Sequence record: CP054387.1
DNA from: Escherichia phage CMS-2020a
Direction: 5' to 3' (one strand)
DNA: 64,000 nucleotides
In this document: positions 4,811-53,618 of the stretch, one piece after another
Layout of the letters: the number at the start of each line of letters is the position of its first letter
How positions within the stretch are numbered: position 1 is the stretch's first letter
The notes under the pieces: model-generated
The model's database searches: none
What the model was told of the DNA's origin: nothing
The model's input: the letters and a program-made list of their open reading frames with translations, nothing else
Made by a program: the position numbers and the translations under genes

Positions 4811-7800
4811 TTACTTCTCCCGAAGTTCTTTAATCTCATGACGAAGTGTTTTAAAGCCCTCGACTAACAATGCAATTATGCCGTTGTAGTTAAGACACAG
4901 ACGTTTTTCACCAGATATAACGTCTGTGTCTTCAGTTACCAGTTCAGACAATGCTTTTTGTGCATCCTGAGCAATTAAACCAACTGACGTTTTCCAACTA
5001 TCATCAGAGAGTTGGATTTCATAAAGATAACCAGTAAGTGCCTCCAAACGATCTAACGCATTATCTAGCTTTACCAGATTACGCTTGTTACGCTTATCTG
5101 AGCGGATCTGAACATCATTAAATGAGCCATTTCCATTTACAGTCAAATTACCTGTTATCGTACCCCCACCGATAGGCAAAGCACCAATTTGAGCGGCACT
5201 TATACTAATATTTTTTGTTCCGTCGAAACTTACTCCATTTATAGTACGTGCTGTTTGTAGCTTAGTTGCTGATGCTGCGTTACCAGATGTATTCTGATTT
5301 CCTGACGTATTCACACCTGGAAGATTAATGTTTGCGCTACCATCAAATGATACTCCACCTATTGTTCTTGATGTTTTTAATTTAGTAGCTGTTGCAGCAT
5401 TACCTGATGTGTTCTGATTTCCAGCTTTGTTAACGCCTGGTAAATCTATATTCGCTGTACCATCAAACGATACCCCCCCTATATTTCTCGCTGTTTTCAG
5501 TTTCGTAGCCGAAACTGCATTTCCATTTGAGGCAAGGGCGCCTATCTCTGAAGCCGTTGGTTTATTTTGAGAACTGTAATTACGACGCCATGTTGGGCTA
5601 TAGTTATCGCCGTTGTATGTATAAATAAACTCACTATTAAGAACAGCACCAGATGCACCTCCAGATGTTGAAGGTGTTGTAATGCGTATAGTGTAATTAC
5701 TTGTACCGGTTGAAAACACCTCAATAACAGAACCAGCAAGAGGTATAACTCCACATCCCGTTGATGCATTTCCTATATAACAGTTACTACCATAAGACCA
5801 GCTACAACGTGTGCTCCACTGAGTTGCATCAAATGCCCCTTGTGAATTTAACCATGCGACAAATTGTGCAGTTGTCCACTCTTGAGTATTCCCCGTAGCA
5901 AGATTAGCAACATATTTTGCTGCACCTAGTTGTTTTGGCGTGATGCTTATATTCTTTGAGCCATCAAAACTGACCCCATTTATTTTTCGTGCCGTTGCAA
6001 GTTTTGTCGCCGTTGCAGCATTACCTGACGTGTTCTGATTTCCAGCTTTATTGACACCAGGTAAGTCAATATTTGCAGTGCCATTAAACGATACCCCACC
6101 TATTGTTCTTGCCGTTTGCAGTCTCGTTGCGCTCCCTGCATTACCTGTTGTACTCTGATTTCCAACCTTGTTAACGCCTGGTAAGTCAATATTTGCAGTG
6201 CCGTCAAATAACATTCCACCAATTGAACGAGGTGTTGCTAACTTAGTGGCAGAGGCAGCGTTTCCACTAGTACTCTGAGTTCCTGTTGAGTTTACACCTG
6301 GTAGATTTATATCTGATGAACCATCAAACGGTACTCCGCCAATTTTTCGTGCTGCTTTTAATTTTGTTGCAGTATCGGAATTTCCGTTAAGTGAGCCTGC
6401 AAGACCATTACTAAATGTTTGCTTTGCACTCCATGTATTGGCTGTACTCAATAAAGGTATTTTATCGCCACTTGTTCCATTTTCCTTCAATCCAAGATAC
6501 TGAATAATCGCCTGTACACTTGCTTTAGAAAGAATATCTCGACCAACAGAAGTTATTGTTGCTAATCCAGCTGTATCATTCCCTGTAAAATAAGGAAGTT
6601 TATTAGCGGCTGTTGTTAGTCCAGCCAGTGCAGTCAGCGTAGCATCAAGAGGTTGTTTTGTGGCCAACTTGTTCGTCATTGTTGTGGCAAAATCGGGATC
6701 ATCACCCAAAGCCCTTGCCAACTCATTAAGAGTATCAAGCGCTTCAGGTGATGATCCTACAAGACCTGAGATCGCTTCTCTTACATAAGCAGTTGTGGCA
6801 ATTTGCGTATTATTAGTGCCTTGAGTCGCCGTTGGTGCCGTTGGTGTGCCAGTAAATGCTGGGCTGTTGATTGCTGCTTTTCTATCAGCAAGATCCTTTA
6901 CACTTTTAACCGCTTTTGTTGTTGCGGCCAATGATTCAGAGGCGTTATTTGTATCGCTACTTAATTGAACCAGCCCTTTTTGTGAAGTTGTCGCGTCATT
7001 TGCAGTATATTTTGATTTAGCAAGATCAAACGCAGCCTTTACTGCTTTTGGTGTTGCTGCAAATTCTTCTGACGAACTGCTCGTCTCACTGCTTAATTTG
7101 ACAATACCCTTCATAGTCAAACTGGCATCATGTAATGATATCGCTGACAAAGCTCTTTCTGCTCTAGTAGCAGCTATCTCTGCACGCTCTGCCGATGCAA
7201 GTGCTGATGTTTGGCTTTGCTTTGCTTCTTCTGCTTTAGCCGCAGATTCAGCTGATTTCGATGATGCGTTACTAGCACTAGTTGAGGCTTCAGCAGACTT
7301 TCGGCTAGCTTCATCCTTCGAAGCTCTAGCAGCAGACGCATAAGTTGAAGCCTGATTAGCGGATGTCTTCGCAGACCTTGCCGACTCTCTAGCCTGATTT
7401 GCAGAAGTTGATGCACTGCCAGCACCAGAAGCAGCATTCATTTCAGATAATTTTGCAGCCTCTTTAGAGACCAACGCAGCATTAGCCGAACTTGTGGCTT
7501 CTGTTGCCTTAGTGGAAGCTGTTGATGCAGAAATTGCAGCTGCGTTCTTCGCCTCTAAAGCACTTGTTTCTGATGCTTTAGCACTTGATGCACTTTTATT
7601 TGCTGCATTTTTAGACGCTGTAGCATCCAACGCACTATTAGATGCCTGAGTAGCCTTACTGCTTGCTAGATTCGCACTCTTCGCCGCAGCCGACGCACTG
7701 GCCGCAGCCTGTTTTGCTTTATCTCCTGCGGAATTAATTGCGTTAGTATTATTTTCATACCATTCTACGTGCTTATTATGCTCCGCGATAATCTTAGAAA

Positions 7801-8182
7801 GAGGTTTTACATTAACATTAGTGCCATCTTCTCGCTCAAGAGTAACTTCATCTACGGCAGTTAACCAATTTCGAACTGTTTTTGCATCACCAGACATTCG
7901 TGATAAAAGAGCCGTAAATCTCGCACTAAACTGTGTCAAATCTCCTTCGTAGGTAGTGATGATCCTACATGGTATATCACTTTGCGTTTCACCAGTATAG
8001 TTTTCAACCAACGTTAAGGTTGTGTCATTTGTTACGCTTTTAATTTCATACAATTTATTATCAGGTGCGACGACAATCATGCCAGGCAACACACCATTGG
8101 CCGTAACGTTCCATGCTGTCCCAGCACCAACCAGAGTATTGCTGCCTTGTGTAAATGTGATAGTACCTTCCCTGTACCACAT
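4811..8182 (-). CDS. tail fibre protein with tandem fibre repeats and C-terminal S74-type intramolecular chaperone domain
   Basis: 1123 aa; ~7 tandem ~38-aa repeats (GGVSFDGTANIDLPGVNKAGNQNTSGNAATATKL...) encoded by ~115 bp DNA repeats at roughly 5.2-6.5 kb; Ala/Ser-rich coiled region; C-terminal LDNALDRLEALTGYLYEIQLSDDSWKTSVGLIAQDAQKALSELV resembles endosialidase/T5-fibre autoproteolytic chaperone. Confidence 0.85.
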   Translation of the reverse strand: MWYREGTITFTQGSNTLVGAGTAWNVTANGVLPGMIVVAPDNKLYEIKSVTNDTTLTLVENYTGETQSDIPCRIITTYEGDLTQFSARFTALLSRMSGDAKTVRNWLTAVDEVTLEREDGTNVNVKPLSKIIAEHNKHVEWYENNTNAINSAGDKAKQAAASASAAAKSANLASSKATQASNSALDATASKNAANKSASSAKASETSALEAKNAAAISASTASTKATEATSSANAALVSKEAAKLSEMNAASGAGSASTSANQARESARSAKTSANQASTYASAARASKDEASRKSAEASTSASNASSKSAESAAKAEEAKQSQTSALASAERAEIAATRAERALSAISLHDASLTMKGIVKLSSETSSSSEEFAATPKAVKAAFDLAKSKYTANDATTSQKGLVQLSSDTNNASESLAATTKAVKSVKDLADRKAAINSPAFTGTPTAPTATQGTNNTQIATTAYVREAISGLVGSSPEALDTLNELARALGDDPDFATTMTNKLATKQPLDATLTALAGLTTAANKLPYFTGNDTAGLATITSVGRDILSKASVQAIIQYLGLKENGTSGDKIPLLSTANTWSAKQTFSNGLAGSLNGNSDTATKLKAARKIGGVPFDGSSDINLPGVNSTGTQSTSGNAASATKLATPRSIGGMLFDGTANIDLPGVNKVGNQSTTGNAGSATRLQTARTIGGVSFNGTANIDLPGVNKAGNQNTSGNAATATKLATARKINGVSFDGSKNISITPKQLGAAKYVANLATGNTQEWTTAQFVAWLNSQGAFDATQWSTRCSWSYGSNCYIGNASTGCGVIPLAGSVIEVFSTGTSNYTIRITTPSTSGGASGAVLNSEFIYTYNGDNYSPTWRRNYSSQNKPTASEIGALASNGNAVSATKLKTARNIGGVSFDGTANIDLPGVNKAGNQNTSGNAATATKLKTSRTIGGVSFDGSANINLPGVNTSGNQNTSGNAASATKLQTARTINGVSFDGTKNISISAAQIGALPIGGGTITGNLTVNGNGSFNDVQIRSDKRNKRNLVKLDNALDRLEALTGYLYEIQLSDDSWKTSVGLIAQDAQKALSELVTEDTDVISGEKRLCLNYNGIIALLVEGFKTLRHEIKELREK

Positions 8183-39938: not shown

Positions 39939-40027
39939 CGGTAGCCGGACGGGAACAGGTGGGTTTGTCGGTTGCCTGGAGGTAAGAGGTTGGTGTTTTT
40001 AGCCTGCGGGAAACAGGATGGTCATTT
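39939..40027. repeat. iteron-like tandem direct repeats (about 31 bp, 3 units)
   Basis: cggtagccggacgggaacaggtgggtttgt / cggttgcctggaggtaagaggttggtgttttt / agcctgcgggaaacaggatggtcattt; related units at 43454..43517. Confidence 0.55.
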
Positions 40028-40577: not shown

Positions 40578-40695
40578 GATGGTTTCCTTATCAAGTTGCT
40601 TTCAGTGAAAGCATTTTCACAAATCAGATAAGGCAGAAAACAAATTGTTATCGGGCATAAGAAAATGGCGCGGTTTACGCGCCATTCAAAGAGGA

Positions 40696-43020: not shown

Positions 43021-43760
43021 AATGCTCACTCCTTCCAGAATGTTCTATACGGCGACTATTTCTGTTGGTGAATTGGGTGTGTTGTTTTCTCTGTCGGTGT
43101 ATGTGGTTTCGTTAGTTTTGCGGTGGTTCTTCTATGGGGGTGTTCTCGTCGTTTTGGTGATTGTTCTTCTCCGTGTATGGAGTAATGGCAGGTGGGCGAT
43201 TGCTTTCGTTATTGTGTTTGAGTTGTTTGTCTGGAGTGTGTGAAGGCTTTTGTAGTTATTCGTGTATTGGGTAATGGCGTTTCCCGTGATTGTTATGTTT
43301 CGTGTCTTTTGGGATTGAGAGAAACCTTGCGGTTACAGGCTTCGTTAGGGTTTCAGCGGTTCAGGTGTTTCTTCGCTGTTTGGGTAATGGCGTGTCGTGG
43401 GTATCGCGCGTATGAATGTTTTCGGATTGCCTGTGAAAGTTAGGTTGGTTGTCCGGTAGCCTGGGGAGAAGAGGTGGGTCTTTTCGGTAGCCTGCCATAA
43501 AGAGGTTGGTTGTTTTGGGTAATGGCATATGTGTTATTTGGTTGTTTTGTTATGCCTGAAAATAAGTTGTTTATATGGTTGTGTAACGCAACGGGAGCGA
43601 TTTTGAGCGTGTGTTTTTGTTGGTAGTGTGTTGAGTCGTCTGTGGTGAAATTTGGACGCTGTGGCGCTATCTGCTGCGTAGAATTACGGGTATAAGAAGT
43701 GATGTGTGATAACGTCAATTTTTTAGACCAAATCGGGAGAAAGCGTTGATGTTTCGTTGA
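43021..43760 (+). other. strand-asymmetric GT-rich non-coding tract with short repeats
   Basis: Plus strand strongly enriched in G and T; GGGTAATGGC at 43269, 43382, 43517 and a variant at 43180; only low-complexity ORFs. Confidence 0.5.
43454..43517. repeat. iteron-like tandem direct repeats (2 units of ~32 bp)
   Basis: ccggtagcctggggagaagaggtgggtctttt / cggtagcctgccataaagaggttggttgtttt; same family as 39939..40027. Confidence 0.55.
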
Positions 43761-43910
43761 TCTGTTATTTAGTTGTTTTCTTATTGGTATAAACAACCAT
43801 AACCTATTGATATTTAATGATGTGATTGCTGGTATGGGAGGGTAGTAGTGGCGATCAACGGGTTCTTATAGAAAAGAATCAAATTGTGACCGCCATTATC
43901 AACGGTTTGA

Positions 43911-44096
43911 TTAGATGAGATGGTCTAATTCATCATCTATCATGGCTTTGACGCTGGAGTCGTTCACTCCATATTTATTTATGAGCTGTTTCAGCTCTGT
44001 CGAAAACTGAAGGTAGATATCGTGAGCGTTTTTCACTGTAGGTTCAACGCCACTCATTTCAAGCGCCTTTAGTAGATATGAGTCTTCTTTAAGCAT
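43911..44096 (-). CDS. hypothetical small protein (uncertain)
   Basis: 61 aa ORF downstream of 44133..44432. Confidence 0.3.
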   Translation of the reverse strand: MLKEDSYLLKALEMSGVEPTVKNAHDIYLQFSTELKQLINKYGVNDSSVKAMIDDELDHLI

Positions 44097-44132: not shown

Positions 44133-44432
44133 TTACCATTGCCAGCACTCAAGCCCTTCAACGACCGGTGCGCCACAATCAAAATGTACAGAGTTAAAGC
44201 CTACATCAAGTACTTTCTGAATGTTCGCAATCGCACCCTCGGATATACCATATCGACGCAACTCATCTTTCCAGTCATCGTCCTGTAACCCGGCGTGGAC
44301 AATGCAACCGTACTCAATTTGTGAAACCCAATCCAGCTCATTGCTTGCGATCATGAATCGGCGAGCATCTTCCTCTGATGTATGAGATGAACTGATCAAT
44401 GCCACCTGGTAGGCTTGGGTAATGTTCAACAT
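44133..44432 (-). CDS. hypothetical protein
   Basis: 99 aa ORF; palindromic motif 14 nt upstream of its start. Confidence 0.4.
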   Translation of the reverse strand: MLNITQAYQVALISSSHTSEEDARRFMIASNELDWVSQIEYGCIVHAGLQDDDWKDELRRYGISEGAIANIQKVLDVGFNSVHFDCGAPVVEGLECWQW

Positions 44433-44544
44433 TTCAACTACTCCAAAACAAGTTGTTTTCTTATGTGGCTTATTATCTCAATCAACAAAAGGTAGAAAAC
44501 AAATTGTTTTAGGGATTGTGTAAATCAGGAGGGATTGTGTCTAT

Positions 44545-44575
44545 ATGAAAATGCCCGGCGTGTTGCCGGGCATTG
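44545..44575 (-). terminator. rho-independent terminator of metG
   Basis: Hairpin aatgcccggc-gtgtt-gccgggcatt followed on minus strand by TTTTCAT, about 20 nt after metG stop. Confidence 0.7.
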
Positions 44576-44593
44576 CGAAGAGAGGTTGTTTAA

Positions 44594-46627
44594 TTACTTA
44601 ACCTGGTGGCCAGGTTTAGCACCAGCATCCGGGCTTAACAGGAAGATATCTTTCCCGCCAGGACCGGCAGCCATCACCATGCCTTCAGAGATACCGAAGC
44701 GCATTTTACGTGGTGCCAGGTTAGCCACCATAATGGTGTGACGACCAATCAGTGCCTGTGGATCTGGATAAGCGGAACGGATGCCTGAGAAGACATTACG
44801 CTTTTCACCACCGAGATCCAGCGTCAGGCGAAGCAGTTTGTCAGAACCTTCGACAAACTCCGCGTTTTCAATCAGCGCCACACGCAGGTCAACTTTGGCG
44901 AAGTCGTCAAAGGTGATGGTTTCCTGAATCGGTTCGTCAGCCAGTGGGCCAGTTACCGGTGCAGCTGTGGCTTTCACTTCTTCTTTGGATGCTTCCACCA
45001 GTGCTTCCACCTGTTTCATATCGATACGGTTATACAGTGCCTTGAACGGATTCACTTTATGGCCCAGAAGCGGTTGCTGGATACCATCCCAGGTCAGTTC
45101 TGTATTCAGGAATGCTTCTGCACGTTCAGTCAGTTTCGGCAGTACCGGTTTCAGGTACGTCATCAGCACGCGGAACAGGTTAATGCCCATAGAGCAAATC
45201 GCCTGCAGATCTGCATCGCGACCTTCCTGCTTCGCCACCACCCACGGAGCCTGTTCATCGACATAGCGATTAGCCAGGTCAGCCAATGCCATGATTTCAC
45301 GGATAGCTTTACCAAATTCGCGGCTTTCCCATGCTTCGCCAATCACTTCAGCGGCATCAGTAAAGGTTTTGTACAGTTGCGGGTCAGCCAGTTCGCTTGT
45401 CAGCACGCCGTCAAAACGCTTGTTGATAAAGCCTGCATTACGGGAGGCCAGGTTAACCACTTTGTTCACGATATCGGCATTCACGCGCTGAACGAAATCT
45501 TCCAGGTTGAGATCGATATCATCAATGCGCGAAGAGAGTTTCGCAGTGTAGTAGTAACGCAGGCTGTCAGCGTCAAAATGATTCAGCCAGGTGCTGGCTT
45601 TAATAAAGGTGCCGCGAGACTTGGACATCTTCGCGCCGTTCACCGTCACATAGCCGTGAACAAACAGGTTGGTCGGCTTGCGGAAGTTGCTGCCTTCCAG
45701 CATGGCAGGCCAGAACAGACTGTGGAAGTAAACGATATCTTTGCCGATGAAGTGGTACAGCTCGGCGGTGGAGTCTTTCTTCCAGTATTCGTCGAAGCTT
45801 ACGCTGTCGCCGCGCTTGTCGCACAGATTCTTGAAAGAACCCATGTAGCCAATCGGCGCGTCCAGCCAGACGTAGAAATATTTGCCCGGCGCGTTCGGAA
45901 TTTCAAAACCGAAGTAAGGGGCGTCGCGGGAGATATCCCACTGTTGCAGGCCAGATTCAAACCACTCCTGCATTTTATTTGCCACCTGCTCCTGCAACGC
46001 ACCGCTGCGGGTCCATGCCTGCAACATTTCGCTGAAAGAGGGCAGATCAAAGAAGAAGTGTTCAGAATCACGCATTACCGGCGTAGCGCCAGAAACCACC
46101 GATTTCGGCTCGATCAGTTCAGTCGGGCTGTAGGTCGCGCCGCAGACTTCGCAGTTATCGCCGTATTGATCCGGGGATTTACATTTCGGGCAGGTGCCTT
46201 TTACAAAACGGTCCGGCAGGAACATGCATTTTTCCGGATCGTACAGCTGTGAGATGGTGCGGTTTTTAATAAAACCGTTTTCTTTCAGGCGAGAGTAGAT
46301 AAGCTCGGACAACTGACGGTTCTCTTCGCTGTGCGTCGAGTGATAGTTGTCATAGCTGATGTTAAAGCCTGCGAAATCAGTCTGATGTTCCTGACTCATT
46401 TCGCCAATCATCTGTTCCGGTGTGATACCAAGCTGCTGTGCTTTCAGCATGATTGGCGTACCGTGGGCATCGTCGGCACAGATGAAATTAACCTCGTGGC
46501 CGCGCATTCGCTGGTAACGAACCCAGACATCAGCCTGGATGTGCTCCAGCATATGGCCGAGGTGGATTGAGCCGTTAGCGTACGGCAGCGCGCACGTCAC
46601 CAGAATTTTCTTCGCGACTTGGGTCAT
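44594..46627 (-). CDS. metG: methionine--tRNA ligase
   Basis: Translation from internal Met ([48 protein letters not shown]...) matches enterobacterial MetRS as I recall it, including HLGH and KMSKS motifs and C-terminal tRNA-binding domain; ORF-track N-terminal extension rejected. Confidence 0.97.
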
Positions 46628-46784
46628 AGTAGGCATTACTTCTTTGTAGTGAAAAGGGGCTTGATAGTAACAAAATGGCCTTATGTCTGCCATGTGATAA
46701 CAGCATTTCTCATAAATGATTAAATGTCGTAGCTGGAGTACACTACAAGGCGACAATTGCGCAAATTAAAATAAAGGAGACGGG

Positions 46785-47885
46785 ATGAGCGAGTCCAAAT
46801 CGCCGGATGCCCTGAGAGCAATGGTAGCCGGTACGCTGGCTAATTTTCAGCACCCAACCCTGAAACACAACTTGACTACGCTTAAAGCGTTACACCATGT
46901 TGCGTTGATGGATGACACACTGCATGTCGAACTAATCATGCCTTTCGTGTGGAATAAGCCTTTTGAAGACCTGAAAGAGCAATGTAGTGGTGATCTGCTC
47001 CGTATCACTGGCGCAAAGGCTATTGACTGGAAGCTGTCGTACAACATTGCCACGCTTAAGCGCGTCAAAAACCAACCAGGCATTAATGGCGTTAAGAACA
47101 TTATCGCCGTCAGCTCAGGCAAGGGCGGCGTGGGTAAATCCTCCACAGCAGTAAACTTGGCACTGGCTTTGGCTGCTGAAGGTGCGAAAGTTGGTATTTT
47201 GGATGCCGATATCTATGGTCCATCAATTCCAACCATGCTGGGCGCGGAAAACCAACGTCCAACCTCACCGGACGGTACTCACATGGCACCTATCATGTCT
47301 CATGGCCTGGCAACCAACTCTATTGGTTATCTGGTCACCGATGACAATGCAATGGTGTGGCGTGGACCGATGGCGAGCAAGGCGCTGATGCAGATGTTGC
47401 AGGAAACACTGTGGCCTGATCTGGACTATCTCGTTCTCGATATGCCACCGGGCACTGGTGATATTCAATTGACGCTGGCGCAGAACATTCCTGTAACTGG
47501 TGCGGTTGTGGTAACTACGCCGCAAGACATCGCGCTGATCGATGCGAAGAAAGGCATTGTGATGTTCGAAAAAGTCGAAGTGCCGGTACTGGGTATCGTT
47601 GAAAACATGAGTGTGCATATTTGCAGTAACTGCGGTCATCACGAGCCAATTTTTGGCACCGGTGGAGCACAGAAACTGGCCGAGAAATACAACACGCAGT
47701 TGTTAGGCCAAATGCCACTTCATATCTCTCTTCGTGAAGATCTGGATAACGGAACACCAACCGTTATTAGTCGTCCAGATAGCGAATTTACGGCTATTTA
47801 TCGTGACCTCGCAGATCGCGTTGCTGCCCAAATGTATTGGCAAGGTGAAGTAATACCTGGCGAAATCGCATTCCGCGCAGTGTGA
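46785..47885 (+). CDS. apbC: Fe-S cluster carrier ATPase ApbC/Mrp
   Basis: 366 aa; P-loop SSGKGGVGKSSTAVNLA, CxxC motif HICSNCGH; divergent from metG as in enterobacterial chromosomes. Confidence 0.95.
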   Translation: MSESKSPDALRAMVAGTLANFQHPTLKHNLTTLKALHHVALMDDTLHVELIMPFVWNKPFEDLKEQCSGDLLRITGAKAIDWKLSYNIATLKRVKNQPGINGVKNIIAVSSGKGGVGKSSTAVNLALALAAEGAKVGILDADIYGPSIPTMLGAENQRPTSPDGTHMAPIMSHGLATNSIGYLVTDDNAMVWRGPMASKALMQMLQETLWPDLDYLVLDMPPGTGDIQLTLAQNIPVTGAVVVTTPQDIALIDAKKGIVMFEKVEVPVLGIVENMSVHICSNCGHHEPIFGTGGAQKLAEKYNTQLLGQMPLHISLREDLDNGTPTVISRPDSEFTAIYRDLADRVAAQMYWQGEVIPGEIAFRAV

Positions 47886-47910
47886 TAAAAAGGCGGTGCA
47901 TTGCACCGCC
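47886..47910. terminator. bidirectional hairpin terminator between apbC and the HumD-like gene
   Basis: ggcggtgca-tt-gcaccgcc hairpin; T-run on the minus-strand side. Confidence 0.55.
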
Positions 47911-47922
47911 TAATCAGTTCTC

Positions 47923-48312
47923 CTACATCACAGGACAATCATCAAACTCGCCACTTCTTGCGTCGTTGATAATGTGAGTGATCACACCAAACACGGCATT
48001 GCTGCCCGTGCATCCATCGTCATCCTTTGGCAATGCTTCCTTCTTACCGGTTCTTAAATCCTCCAGATGCTGACGTGGAGACTTCCGGTATCTTTTTACG
48101 CGATATTCCCCATCCAGAGCGCATACAAGCAGAGAACCATCAACCGGGGTAAGTGAGGAATCAACCACCAGCAATGCACCCTGTAATATTCCCTCACGAT
48201 GATGACTATCAGCTGCTCTCATGAAGTAGGTCGCTGAAGGATGTCTAATTATCTGCTGATCAAGAGAAATACGGCTCTCAGCATAATCCGCCGCAGGAGA
48301 AGGGAAGCCCAT
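47923..48312 (-). CDS. UmuD-prime/HumD-like S24-family protein (N-terminally short, resembles processed UmuD)
   Basis: [37 protein letters not shown]... parallels UmuD from about residue 25 ([37 protein letters not shown]); Ser in DSH and Lys in VKRY retained; in-frame stop 4 codons upstream of ATG so no N-terminal arm. Confidence 0.85.
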   Translation of the reverse strand: [129 protein letters not shown]

Positions 48313-48328
48313 AGCGTTTTGCCCTCAA

Positions 48329-48348
48329 TACTGTTCATTTACACAGTA
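48329..48348 (-). promoter_or_regulatory. LexA box (SOS operator)
   Basis: Minus-strand TACTGTGTAAATGAACAGTA fits CTGT-N8-ACAG, 16 nt upstream of the HumD-like start codon. Confidence 0.8.
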
Positions 48349-48484
48349 TACATGAAAGAAGCTCACTCAGTGCAACTGATCGGTACATAGCACCAGACAA
48401 AGGAACGTTATTTTCTCGAACAAGAAAAGGTAGAAAACAAATTGTTTAAGGCCACAACTAGTGGCCTTAATGGAGAAGGGATGC

Positions 48485-49009
48485 TTATTGGCTATGGCTA
48501 AAAATCAAATGAGACACTTCATTTGGTTGTAGCTCGTCAAGATCCGGGGCCACAAAACCTTTTCCGAAAGACTTCACAAGTGATTCACCAGCCGCATCAT
48601 TGTCACCTATTACGCGAAAGTCATACGGCAGCATTGCCAGTTGACGACGTAATCCTGCTGAGAAAGTCGAACCTAACAGCGCCCACGAATTTCCGCCCGC
48701 GTTGTGCACTGCTGCACTTTTAAAAATCGACTCAGTTATCCATATCGGTCCATCTTTTAAAGGAAGATAGGTTCCCCATAGTAGCTGTCTGCCGTGCGCT
48801 CGTGTGAAATACCGGGCCATCTTCGGATTGCTATGCTGCTTAGGAGCGCCTGGTCTGTATGTCTGATACCCGGCCAACATCCCATCAAACCTGTATAGAG
48901 GGAATGTAACAACTCCTTCGCTTTCATCGATCCACTGTCTATATGGATGCACATCATAGCGGTAGTTACGAGTTAGCAAATGAGCTTCCAGCTTTCCAAA
49001 TTTAGTCAT
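48485..49009 (-). CDS. hypothetical protein (possible TOPRIM-like acidic motif)
   Basis: Start at internal Met MTKFGKLEAH; segment RVIGDNDAAGE resembles a DxD TOPRIM motif, weak. Confidence 0.4.
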   Translation of the reverse strand: MTKFGKLEAHLLTRNYRYDVHPYRQWIDESEGVVTFPLYRFDGMLAGYQTYRPGAPKQHSNPKMARYFTRAHGRQLLWGTYLPLKDGPIWITESIFKSAAVHNAGGNSWALLGSTFSAGLRRQLAMLPYDFRVIGDNDAAGESLVKSFGKGFVAPDLDELQPNEVSHLIFSHSQ

Positions 49010-53480: not shown

Positions 53481-53618
53481 GTGTTTTTCTCTTCTTTGCT
53501 GTTACATAAGCACTACCAAGTGCTGGTTTATTTTCACAAATAAGAAAATGTAGAAAACAATTTATTTAAGGCCACAACTTATGGCCTTTATTTATTCATG
53601 CCGAAGGATTTGTAGCGT

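Follow-up and report, generated by a model that had tools for sequence, protein, structure and literature searches.

Among the phage-plasmids of the SSU5 supergroup, pWPMR2 constitutes clade K and comes largely from Shigella sonnei; SSU5-group phage-plasmids are present in 18% of the scanned S. sonnei genomes (bioRxiv 10.1101/2025.09.12.675607). The extra metG gene of pWPMR2-type phage-plasmids has already been described. In PMC12452169, which cites Tam et al. (medRxiv 10.1101/2024.10.27.24316207), phage-plasmid-borne metG is connected with a tolerant sub-population, and expression of the extra metG gives rise to a sub-population predisposed to third-generation cephalosporin resistance in S. 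sonnei. The sources consulted on pWPMR2 mention only metG. Cyrano (= pLF82) is an SSU5-like element with ~5.5 copies per cell; it is induced by ciprofloxacin, and its virions have been detected by quantitative PCR and transmission electron microscopy (PMC9928086). Here, we analysed a 64,000-nt stretch of Escherichia phage CMS-2020a (CP054387.1), in which complete metG and apbC genes are embedded in phage-type DNA. This whole stretch is referred to as the window, and all positions are those of the window unless an accession is given.

The window is very probably, over its whole length, one SSU5-supergroup phage-plasmid of Escherichia/Shigella that captured an extra, intact host metG-apbC pair as self-contained cargo. 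It is an element of the same kind as pWPMR2 and carries the same extra metG; the S. sonnei plasmids LR213459.1 and NZ_CP045933.1 used below are not formally equated with pWPMR2. The pWPMR2-type S. sonnei plasmids differ from the window in its first 25 kb, which fits a plasmid of E. coli O104:H4 better. pLF82/Cyrano of E. coli LF82, p09EL50 of E. coli O104:H4 2009EL-2050, and PhiR41_1 share the backbone of the window and carry metG-apbC at the same place in it, flanked by the same genes, but their cassettes are 94-99% identical to that of the window, with other E. coli-type tracts in metG and other neighbouring accessory genes. SSU5 and pHCM2 of Salmonella belong to the same supergroup and share with the window a palindrome, AAACAANTTGTTT, at the same kinds of positions, a G/T-skewed, apparently non-coding region, and a syntenic array of small genes. 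They differ in lacking metG-apbC; the equivalent region of pHCM2 has other genes, including a host-like ydfZ.

Phage morons are a concept of Juhala and Hendrix, with bor and lom of lambda as examples. Like a moron, the cassette is an extra unit between backbone genes, with a terminator and deviant G+C content, absent or replaced in relatives, and its apbC is expressed lysogenically in LF82. Unlike the usual moron cargo, a surface or virulence factor, it is a housekeeping pair that duplicates essential host functions and apparently still recombines with its homologue on the chromosome. Chromosomal metG alleles have been tied to tolerance in the tolerance-by-lag mutants of E. coli. An altered pool of methionyl-tRNA synthetase (MetRS) is there linked to antibiotic tolerance, as it is in the phage-plasmid case, for the latter in PMC12452169. 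The isoleucyl-tRNA synthetases MupA and MupB are likewise second synthetases on mobile elements; unlike them, the phage-plasmid MetRS is 99% identical to the host enzyme and is no drug-insensitive paralogue. With pWPMR2-type metG already known, the slot with its repeated putative operator module, the conservation and amelioration of apbC, and the patchwork of putative conversion tracts in metG are modest additions, which refine the published picture and do not change it.

The carrier element and its metG-apbC cassette

The portal/terminase genes of the window had matches in 236 of 5,426 complete E. coli genomes, and every one of the 244 matching places was on a plasmid, none on a chromosome. 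Chromosomal metG and apbC were present in all 5,426 genomes, ~90.5% identical to the window over 44593-47881. The original prediction, made from the sequence of the window, had proposed looking for a second metG copy; a plasmid-borne metG-apbC pair was found beside the chromosomal one in 217 E. coli genomes, that is, in 217/236 (about nine in ten) of those with the portal/terminase of this phage. Plasmids with the cassette include animal and environmental isolates. At least 80% of 44400-48500 is covered in 192 complete plasmid records, which have both cassette junctions in common; two of them, the ~108-kb S. sonnei plasmids LR213459.1 and NZ_CP045933.1, match the window at 100% identity over this segment. 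A megablast search of 40-53 kb against phage records returned three ~108-kb phages, PhiR41_1, CMS-2020a, and Cyrano, in all of which metG and apbC are annotated at the same position with the same small genes around them. The genomes of PhiR41_1 and CMS-2020a, both with the cassette, were deposited as phages.

A near-identical annotated record includes genes for the terminase large subunit, portal, major capsid, tape measure, tail, and tail fibre, and its structural genes, ParB-like genes, helicase, and accessory genes are contiguous in a minus-strand layout. In the window, the tail, capsid, portal, and terminase genes are located left of the cassette flanks, and positions 1-25000 match SSU5-like plasmids of Escherichia, Klebsiella, Yersinia, and Salmonella. 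Partition and addiction genes had been predicted at the left end; a ParA/MipZ-type ATPase is indeed encoded at 880-1548, but Pfam revealed no toxin domain. PLSDB types the matching records as rep_cluster_488 or IncFIB, non-mobilizable, with the rep gene outside the window, and Rfam and tRNA scans of the whole window gave no match. Two hallmarks of an SSU5-supergroup phage-plasmid were found, namely a siphovirus structural and packaging module and an extrachromosomal state in database relatives. The suggestions of a phage-plasmid origin and of host DNA captured inside one element, made among others in the original prediction, agree with relatives found exclusively on plasmids in complete E. coli genomes and with the same junctions in three phages and 192 plasmids. 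The element would be a temperate siphovirus kept as a ~108-kb circular plasmid, in a lineage that includes pWPMR2, p09EL50, and pLF82/Cyrano.

The window is mosaic relative to database plasmids. Positions 1-25000 are 100% identical to the E. coli O104:H4 FDAARGOS_348 plasmid NZ_CP022085.2 and 98.8% identical (93% coverage) to the S. sonnei plasmids, and the cassette is 100% identical to the S. sonnei plasmids but 99.0% to NZ_CP022085.2. This pattern suggests recent recombination between phage-plasmid lineages, and the window may be a recombinant or a different member relative to the S. sonnei plasmids.

The two cargo genes are complete, divergent, and of enterobacterial type, as had been proposed, and their arrangement is the same as on the E. 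coli K-12 chromosome. In profile scans, MetRS scored 1018 bits over its full length against the NCBIfam equivalog NF001100 (cut-off 587) and 163.7 bits against TIGR00399, the C-terminal tRNA-binding/dimerisation domain; its scores for alternative-synthetase families were far under cut-off. The motifs HLGH22 and KMSKS333 and the zinc knuckles CPKC146/CEVC159 are kept, and the protein differs from K-12 MetRS at seven residues (99.0% identity). It is thus a full-length class I MetG with all signature motifs, predicted to be enzymatically active. ApbC scored 759 bits against the equivalog NF008669 (cut-off 348) and retains the deviant Walker A motif GKGGVGKS112 and the CxxC cluster ligands CSNC280; its N-terminus is three residues shorter, giving 366 residues. 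MinD and ParA were considered for this protein and rejected, both models scoring far under their cut-offs.

Both ends of the cassette are closed by hairpins (Table 1). The terminator previously ascribed to metG was recovered as a hairpin followed by UUUUCAU; a simple terminator scan of the window left it uncalled. Chromosomal loci were sampled by a MetRS scan of one genome per species in GTDB, which gave 80 loci, and homology to the metG 3' flank with this hairpin was found in none of them. Read toward humD, the hairpin that separates this gene from apbC has the full form of an intrinsic terminator, and it closes apbC as well; pTB212, a related 110-kb plasmid, has no corresponding hairpin. In the metG/apbC intergenic region, only ~50 bp beside metG are E. 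coli-like, the remainder being closer to Citrobacter-type intergenic regions, and no AAACAANTTGTTT site is present.

Phage-type DNA had been noted on both sides of the genes, and the flanks indeed encode members of PHROG families plus one HumD-family protein. E. coli chromosomal homology covers 44593 to 47878/47881. In pTB212, a 744-nt DUF4145 gene stands in place of metG-apbC between flanks ~89-90% identical to those of the window (left flank, 89%), and this comparison defines the edges of the slot. On the left, pTB212 homology ends at ~44510-44523, just after the palindrome at 44497-44509, so that non-cassette DNA starts ~27-40 bp past the metG terminator hairpin; on the right, the edge is the humD stop codon at 47923, 38 bp past the apbC stop. 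Plasmid 2014C-3307 has metG-apbC plus an added HD-domain gene, inserted between ~140-nt duplications (NZ_CP027369.1 1590-1735 and 2455-2600) that start at the palindrome and run through the metG terminator into the last ~42 nt of metG. By its sequence, this duplication is a relic of a metG 3' end, jointed at the palindrome. In pHCM2 of Salmonella Typhi (NZ_CP029929.1), the small-gene array and the AAACAANTTGTTT motif are shared, and other genes occupy roughly the same region; ydfZ (putative selenium delivery protein) is found there at 7787-7990 of pHCM2, on the opposite strand and beside the same repeat module.

The cassette has the marks of a moron: the slot between backbone genes is filled differently in pTB212, base composition deviates from the surroundings (G+C 50.7%, against 45.1% outside the cassette; the adjoining 10 kb on either side have 41.8% and 45.9%), hairpin terminators are present, and none of the 14 AAACAANTTGTTT sites of the window falls inside. 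It would occupy a slot between the humD stop and the promoter/operator of the next backbone unit and behave as a classical moron. Since it is an extra unit with its own predicted control region and terminators, higher G+C, and no phage operator, its genes should be active while the element is a plasmid, in as many copies as the plasmid has.

Expression and evolution of the cargo genes

In LF82, CYRAN_99 is the apbC homologue and CYRAN_100 the metG homologue. Transcription of CYRAN_99 exceeds the prophage background 9-fold, and the gene is counted as a moron (PMC9928086). We propose that, while the element persists as a plasmid with several copies per cell, divergent promoters within the cassette drive its expression. 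The result would be extra, near-identical MetRS, possibly forming heterodimers with the host enzyme, plus an extra Fe-S carrier. Following the literature, the extra MetRS copy would yield a tolerant or persister sub-population from which cephalosporin resistance evolves in S. sonnei, presumably through dosage or a few substitutions. For a temperate phage living as a multicopy plasmid, it is unusual to carry a second essential aminoacyl-tRNA synthetase gene that looks fully functional, and according to the literature this cargo has clinical relevance, being associated with drug-resistant S. sonnei lineages and tolerant sub-populations.

The cassette might instead be kept mainly for the benefit of the phage, whether by supplying translation and Fe-S capacity during lytic growth, by hedging against host states or toxins that restrict Met-tRNA charging, or by retaining the plasmid through dependence. 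We consider this unlikely as the principal reason, though it keeps some weight and is compatible with a role in host tolerance. The cassette is near-fixed (217/236 E. coli genomes) also among animal and environmental isolates; ApbC, which has no known tolerance role, is the more strictly conserved protein and is the one transcribed in LF82; and plasmids of distant phyla also bear metG copies. On the other hand, the published phenotype concerns host survival (PMC12452169, citing Tam et al.), and a cassette without phage operator stands outside the control of the phage programme.

The two halves of the cassette have different affinities, because metG is ~95% and apbC ~82% identical to Escherichia, out of proportion to the between-species calibration. 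Relative to K-12, metG has a nucleotide identity of 95.1% and an amino-acid identity of 99.0%, with a ratio of nonsynonymous to synonymous divergence (dN/dS) of 0.02 (range for metG, 0.02-0.045); apbC is 82% identical in nucleotides and 93.8% in amino acids, with a synonymous divergence of ~1.7 and a dN/dS of 0.02. For calibration, K-12 and Escherichia sp. E1V33 are 94.3% identical in metG and 90.3% in apbC, and K-12 and Citrobacter werkmanii 87.6% and 84.1%. The ~82% nucleotide identity of apbC holds for Escherichia and Citrobacter alike, with no sampled chromosome higher, and the ApbC protein has the same ~95% identity to its counterparts in Escherichia, Salmonella, and Citrobacter. The record CP170191.1, which bears the label Enterobacter hormaechei B56, was examined as a donor and rejected; it is the same as E. 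coli K-12 at this locus and was treated as E. coli-like. Its identities to the window equal those of K-12 in every comparison, and the label or assembly of this GTDB species representative is doubtful.

By these sequence comparisons, both genes are under strong purifying selection and kept functional. Against two other plasmid copies, apbC has no nonsynonymous and 29-34 synonymous differences, and the ApbC protein is identical (WP_000004356.1) in 6/7 RefSeq-annotated plasmid records examined and in the translated PhiR41_1 and Cyrano. Identity of the protein in spite of 29-34 synonymous differences indicates that apbC is selected and no mere passenger; that it is conserved more strictly than metG is only suggestive. 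A search for ApbC in a set of 5.8 billion proteins was uninformative, the 90% clustering merging the plasmid protein with chromosomal clusters. G+C at third codon positions (GC3) is 0.51 in apbC versus 0.60-0.74 in the chromosomal copies, and 0.606 in metG versus 0.625 in K-12; hence apbC has ameliorated toward the AT-richer element and metG has not.

Nine plasmid cassette copies were compared with each other. Mean identity was 96.2% in metG (minimum 93.9%), 97.9% in apbC, and 99.6% in the intergenic region; the portal/terminase region is at least 99% identical in 199/236 records. A total of 106 metG sites separate K-12 from the plasmid majority, and at these sites the K-12-type alleles are arranged in contiguous tracts that differ per plasmid (run permutation, p = 0.001). 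In 100-nt windows across 45794-46193, metG of the analysed window is 99-100% identical to K-12, and most other plasmid copies are 90-97% identical; the O104 plasmid copy shares part of the main tract listed in Table 1. All nine MetRS copies have S319T, V442I, and R538K relative to K-12, and G134C, A410T, and D565E are private to the window among the nine.

This pattern is most simply read as an early capture, after which metG was converted again and again by the chromosomal gene of one Escherichia/Shigella host after another. An ancestor of the lineage would have taken up the divergent chromosomal pair; apbC would then have drifted to the composition of the element and by now be too diverged for frequent recombination, and metG would have been patched repeatedly by homologous recombination with the metG of the host chromosome.

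A single chimeric capture, or faster neutral drift of apbC, would explain the difference between the genes without continuing gene conversion. The shifted GC3 of apbC does indicate that part of its divergence is directional drift, and metG is the slower-evolving gene between species anyway. Even so, we judge this explanation improbable: a single chimeric capture cannot give different contiguous E. coli-type tracts in each plasmid, and metG varies more among plasmids than apbC, the intergenic region, or the portal/terminase region.

The AAACAANTTGTTT palindrome and its repeat modules

Two near-identical 24-bp blocks on either side of the genes had been reported. An exact repeat is present, but it is a 23-mer, AAAAGGTAGAAAACAAATTGTTT, at 44487-44509 and 48425-48447, the left copy starting 4 nt from the earlier coordinate of 44483; shuffled sequences contained no match. 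Further copies with three mismatches lie at 40628 and 53545. A 64-nt block, present in four copies that start at 40611, 44470, 48408, and 53528, is centred on the 23-mer. At its core is a 13-bp palindrome, AAACAANTTGTTT; the window has 14 of these sites versus 0.47 expected.

Each palindrome in the window precedes a minus-strand gene, and two of them bracket the promoter of the gene at 44133-44432. The sites are placed either over the -35 region or shortly before start codons. All four block copies have a -10-like GAAAAT or GATAAT after the palindrome, with an upstream TG in 3/4; in the copies at 48408 and 53528, a terminator hairpin precedes the palindrome on the minus strand. At seven other sites, the palindrome stands 10-40 nt upstream of the start codon, behind AGAAAAC. 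In five phage-plasmid loci, pHCM2 among them, AAACAANTTGTTT occurs 2.2-8.1 times per 10 kb; across 780 kb of enterobacterial chromosome the figure is 0.04 per 10 kb, so that the loci are enriched ~50-200 times. Short exact matches to the block are found in Salmonella, Enterobacter, and Klebsiella plasmids, and the motif is kept in Salmonella pHCM2, which has no metG. AAACAANTTGTTT is therefore most likely the operator, as predicted from sequence, of a regulator of the phage-plasmid family. The standard intercistronic module would consist of a terminator hairpin, the palindrome, and an extended -10 promoter. AAACAANTTGTTT may also be a module boundary for recombination, the repeats serving as joints for module exchange, since the breakpoints of the two known rearrangements of the slot lie there. 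Two sites near the junction of the terminase small and large subunits (29658 and 29683) and one upstream of the ParA-like ATPase (1584) were observed, for which reason the regulon may reach beyond the accessory region.

The repeat as first reported could be taken to imply an insertion footprint or a link between the two flanking regions. As a footprint, the 23-mers would bound a discrete mobile unit, in the form of att-like sites, transposon ends, or target duplications, and metG-apbC would have come in with it through site-specific recombination or transposition. The exact identity of 23 nt on both sides of the genes invites this view, and at the left edge the module boundaries do fall at the palindrome. 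We nevertheless hold it to be very improbable. The right 23-mer lies 500 bp beyond the cassette, with the backbone gene humD between, and it probably drives humD, so that it is not an insertion scar. Moreover, there are four block copies and 14 core copies, each before a minus-strand gene; both repeats have the same orientation and are parts of promoter modules; the motif is as frequent in pHCM2, without metG; and no integrase or transposase is annotated nearby in the near-identical record. A transposon, an integron cassette, or an att-flanked island was likewise rejected, as repeats directly bounding the insert together with a recombinase were not found.

The idea that two separate prophage-like elements, or one split by rearrangement, surround the ordinary chromosomal metG and apbC has virtually no standing: in isolation the genes do look like enterobacterial core genes in their native divergent order, but the relatives expected to show the same flanks beside chromosomal metG/apbC do not (in K-12, a DUF4132 pseudogene and yehE/yehD adjoin the pair), none of the 80 sampled chromosomal loci has 3' flanks related to those of the two cassette genes, the cassette is only ~90.5% identical to the chromosomal copies, portal and terminase lie on plasmids in 244/244 places with both gene copies in 217 genomes, and phage genomes contain the same cassette. 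The other option raised earlier, a chimera in which assembly joined plasmid or phage reads to reads from the chromosomal metG/apbC locus, is just as hard to credit, for although the window is mosaic relative to individual database plasmids, identical junctions recur in 192 independent complete plasmids and three phage genomes from unrelated projects, and the allele is plasmid-specific (S319T, V442I, R538K; 366-residue ApbC; own intergenic region).

With the single captured cassette as the preferred explanation, a combined reading has, in our estimate, a chance slightly short of even: metG would be in continuing exchange with the host chromosomal metG, the virus acting as an allele shuttle or diversifier; apbC would be a conserved, transcribed partner; and AAACAANTTGTTT would mark an uncharacterised SSU5-family regulon whose promoter modules serve as joints for cargo swaps. 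If true, the exchange of metG could explain the reported 'highly variable' metG copies, and the reverse direction could seed tolerance alleles into chromosomes.

Several points weigh against the proposed history and mechanism. No single database plasmid is identical to the window, the best matches of 1-25000 and of the cassette being different. The donor search gave no match among the 80 GTDB loci to the cassette terminators or to the apbC-proximal half of the intergenic region, and none with apbC above ~82% nucleotide identity; part of the apbC divergence may come from compositional drift and not from a distant donor. In a sigma-70 consensus scan, matches were no commoner than in shuffled sequences, and none within the metG/apbC intergenic region was strong. 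CYRAN_100, the metG homologue, is not among the LF82 genes at least 5-fold above background (PMC9928086). Lastly, the recombination-boundary role of the palindrome rests on two junctions. For annotation, the locus teaches that core genes inside phage DNA can be genuine, ancient, selected cargo and not misassembly.

Coordinates and neighbouring features

The features of the locus are collected in Table 1. Several hundred P1-like plasmids have a P1-family humD with 85-90% identity to the backbone gene humD of the window; by sequence, the humD module is common to two unrelated phage-plasmid families. The motif CTGT-N8-ACAG upstream of humD resembles the LexA consensus.

Table 1. Positions of the cargo, its slot, and the repeat modules in the window.
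Feature	Position	Strand	Details
First backbone gene downstream of cassette	44133-44432	minus	DUF5983 C-terminal domain, phrog_5003
Promoter/operator module of next backbone unit (predicted)	44441-44533	minus	palindromes 44497-44509 and 44446-44458 around TGAGATAAT; left 23-mer; left slot edge
Cargo cassette	44524-47922		replaced in pTB212; chromosome-like DNA proper 44593-47881
metG terminator hairpin	44550-44574	minus	10-bp GC-rich stem, then UUUUCAU; -19.1 kcal/mol, z -5.4
metG, methionine--tRNA ligase, complete	44594-46627	minus	677 aa; NCBIfam NF001100 full length
Second, short K-12-type tract in metG	44660-44714
Main K-12-type tract in metG	45800-46295	minus	putative gene-conversion tract
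Divergent metG/apbC control region	46628-46784		157 bp; promoters predicted from conservation
apbC (mrp), iron-sulfur cluster carrier ATPase, complete	46785-47885	plus	366 aa; NF008669
Hairpin between apbC and humD	47891-47911	minus	U-tract toward humD; -17.9 and -17.3 kcal/mol
humD (UmuD'-like S24 peptidase), backbone gene	47923-48312	minus	NCBIfam NF051876, 218.7 bits; right slot edge
LexA-box-like CTGT-N8-ACAG	48331-48346		upstream of humD, between humD and 48408 module
Intercistronic module (predicted)	48408-48471	minus	hairpin 48446-48470, palindrome 48435-48447, then -10-like GAAAAT; right 23-mer
Third 64-nt module copy	40611-40674	minus
Fourth 64-nt module copy	53528-53591	minus	hairpin and palindrome; 86% identical to copy at 48408
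AAACAANTTGTTT sites	1584, 29658, 29683, 39873, 40638, 41540, 42025, 43560, 44446, 44497, 48435, 53555, 58098, 58827

Plasmid metG copies unrelated to that of the window (25-35% identity) were observed in Bacteroides finegoldii, Bacillus subtilis, Paraclostridium, Pediococcus, and Phaeobacter. Several PLSDB 'plasmid' records of 4.8-5.4 Mb are evidently chromosomes.

A stretch of ~0.9 kb left of the cassette (43044-43914) has no annotated gene, and its plus strand is G/T-rich, with a GC skew of +0.43 and an AT skew of -0.37. It is 70% identical over 941 nt to Salmonella pHCM2 and 75-97% identical to E. coli relatives. It looks like a conserved non-coding element, because the substitutions have no codon phase (90/90/95) and 1-nt gaps are many. 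Possible roles are an origin or, on the minus strand, a C/A-rich leader or non-coding RNA; Rfam gave no match to this stretch, and a tandem-repeat finder returned nothing meaningful in the gene-free region. Paired 25-mers of the form GGTAGCCTG-N5-AAGAGGTKGGT, spaced by 30-31 nt, are located in two separate intergenic stretches, at 39940-39994 and 43455-43510, with none expected by chance, and three exact copies of TGGGTAATGGC are found in the gene-free region at 43268, 43381, and 43516. In sequence, the paired 25-mers and the TGGGTAATGGC copies appear iteron-like.

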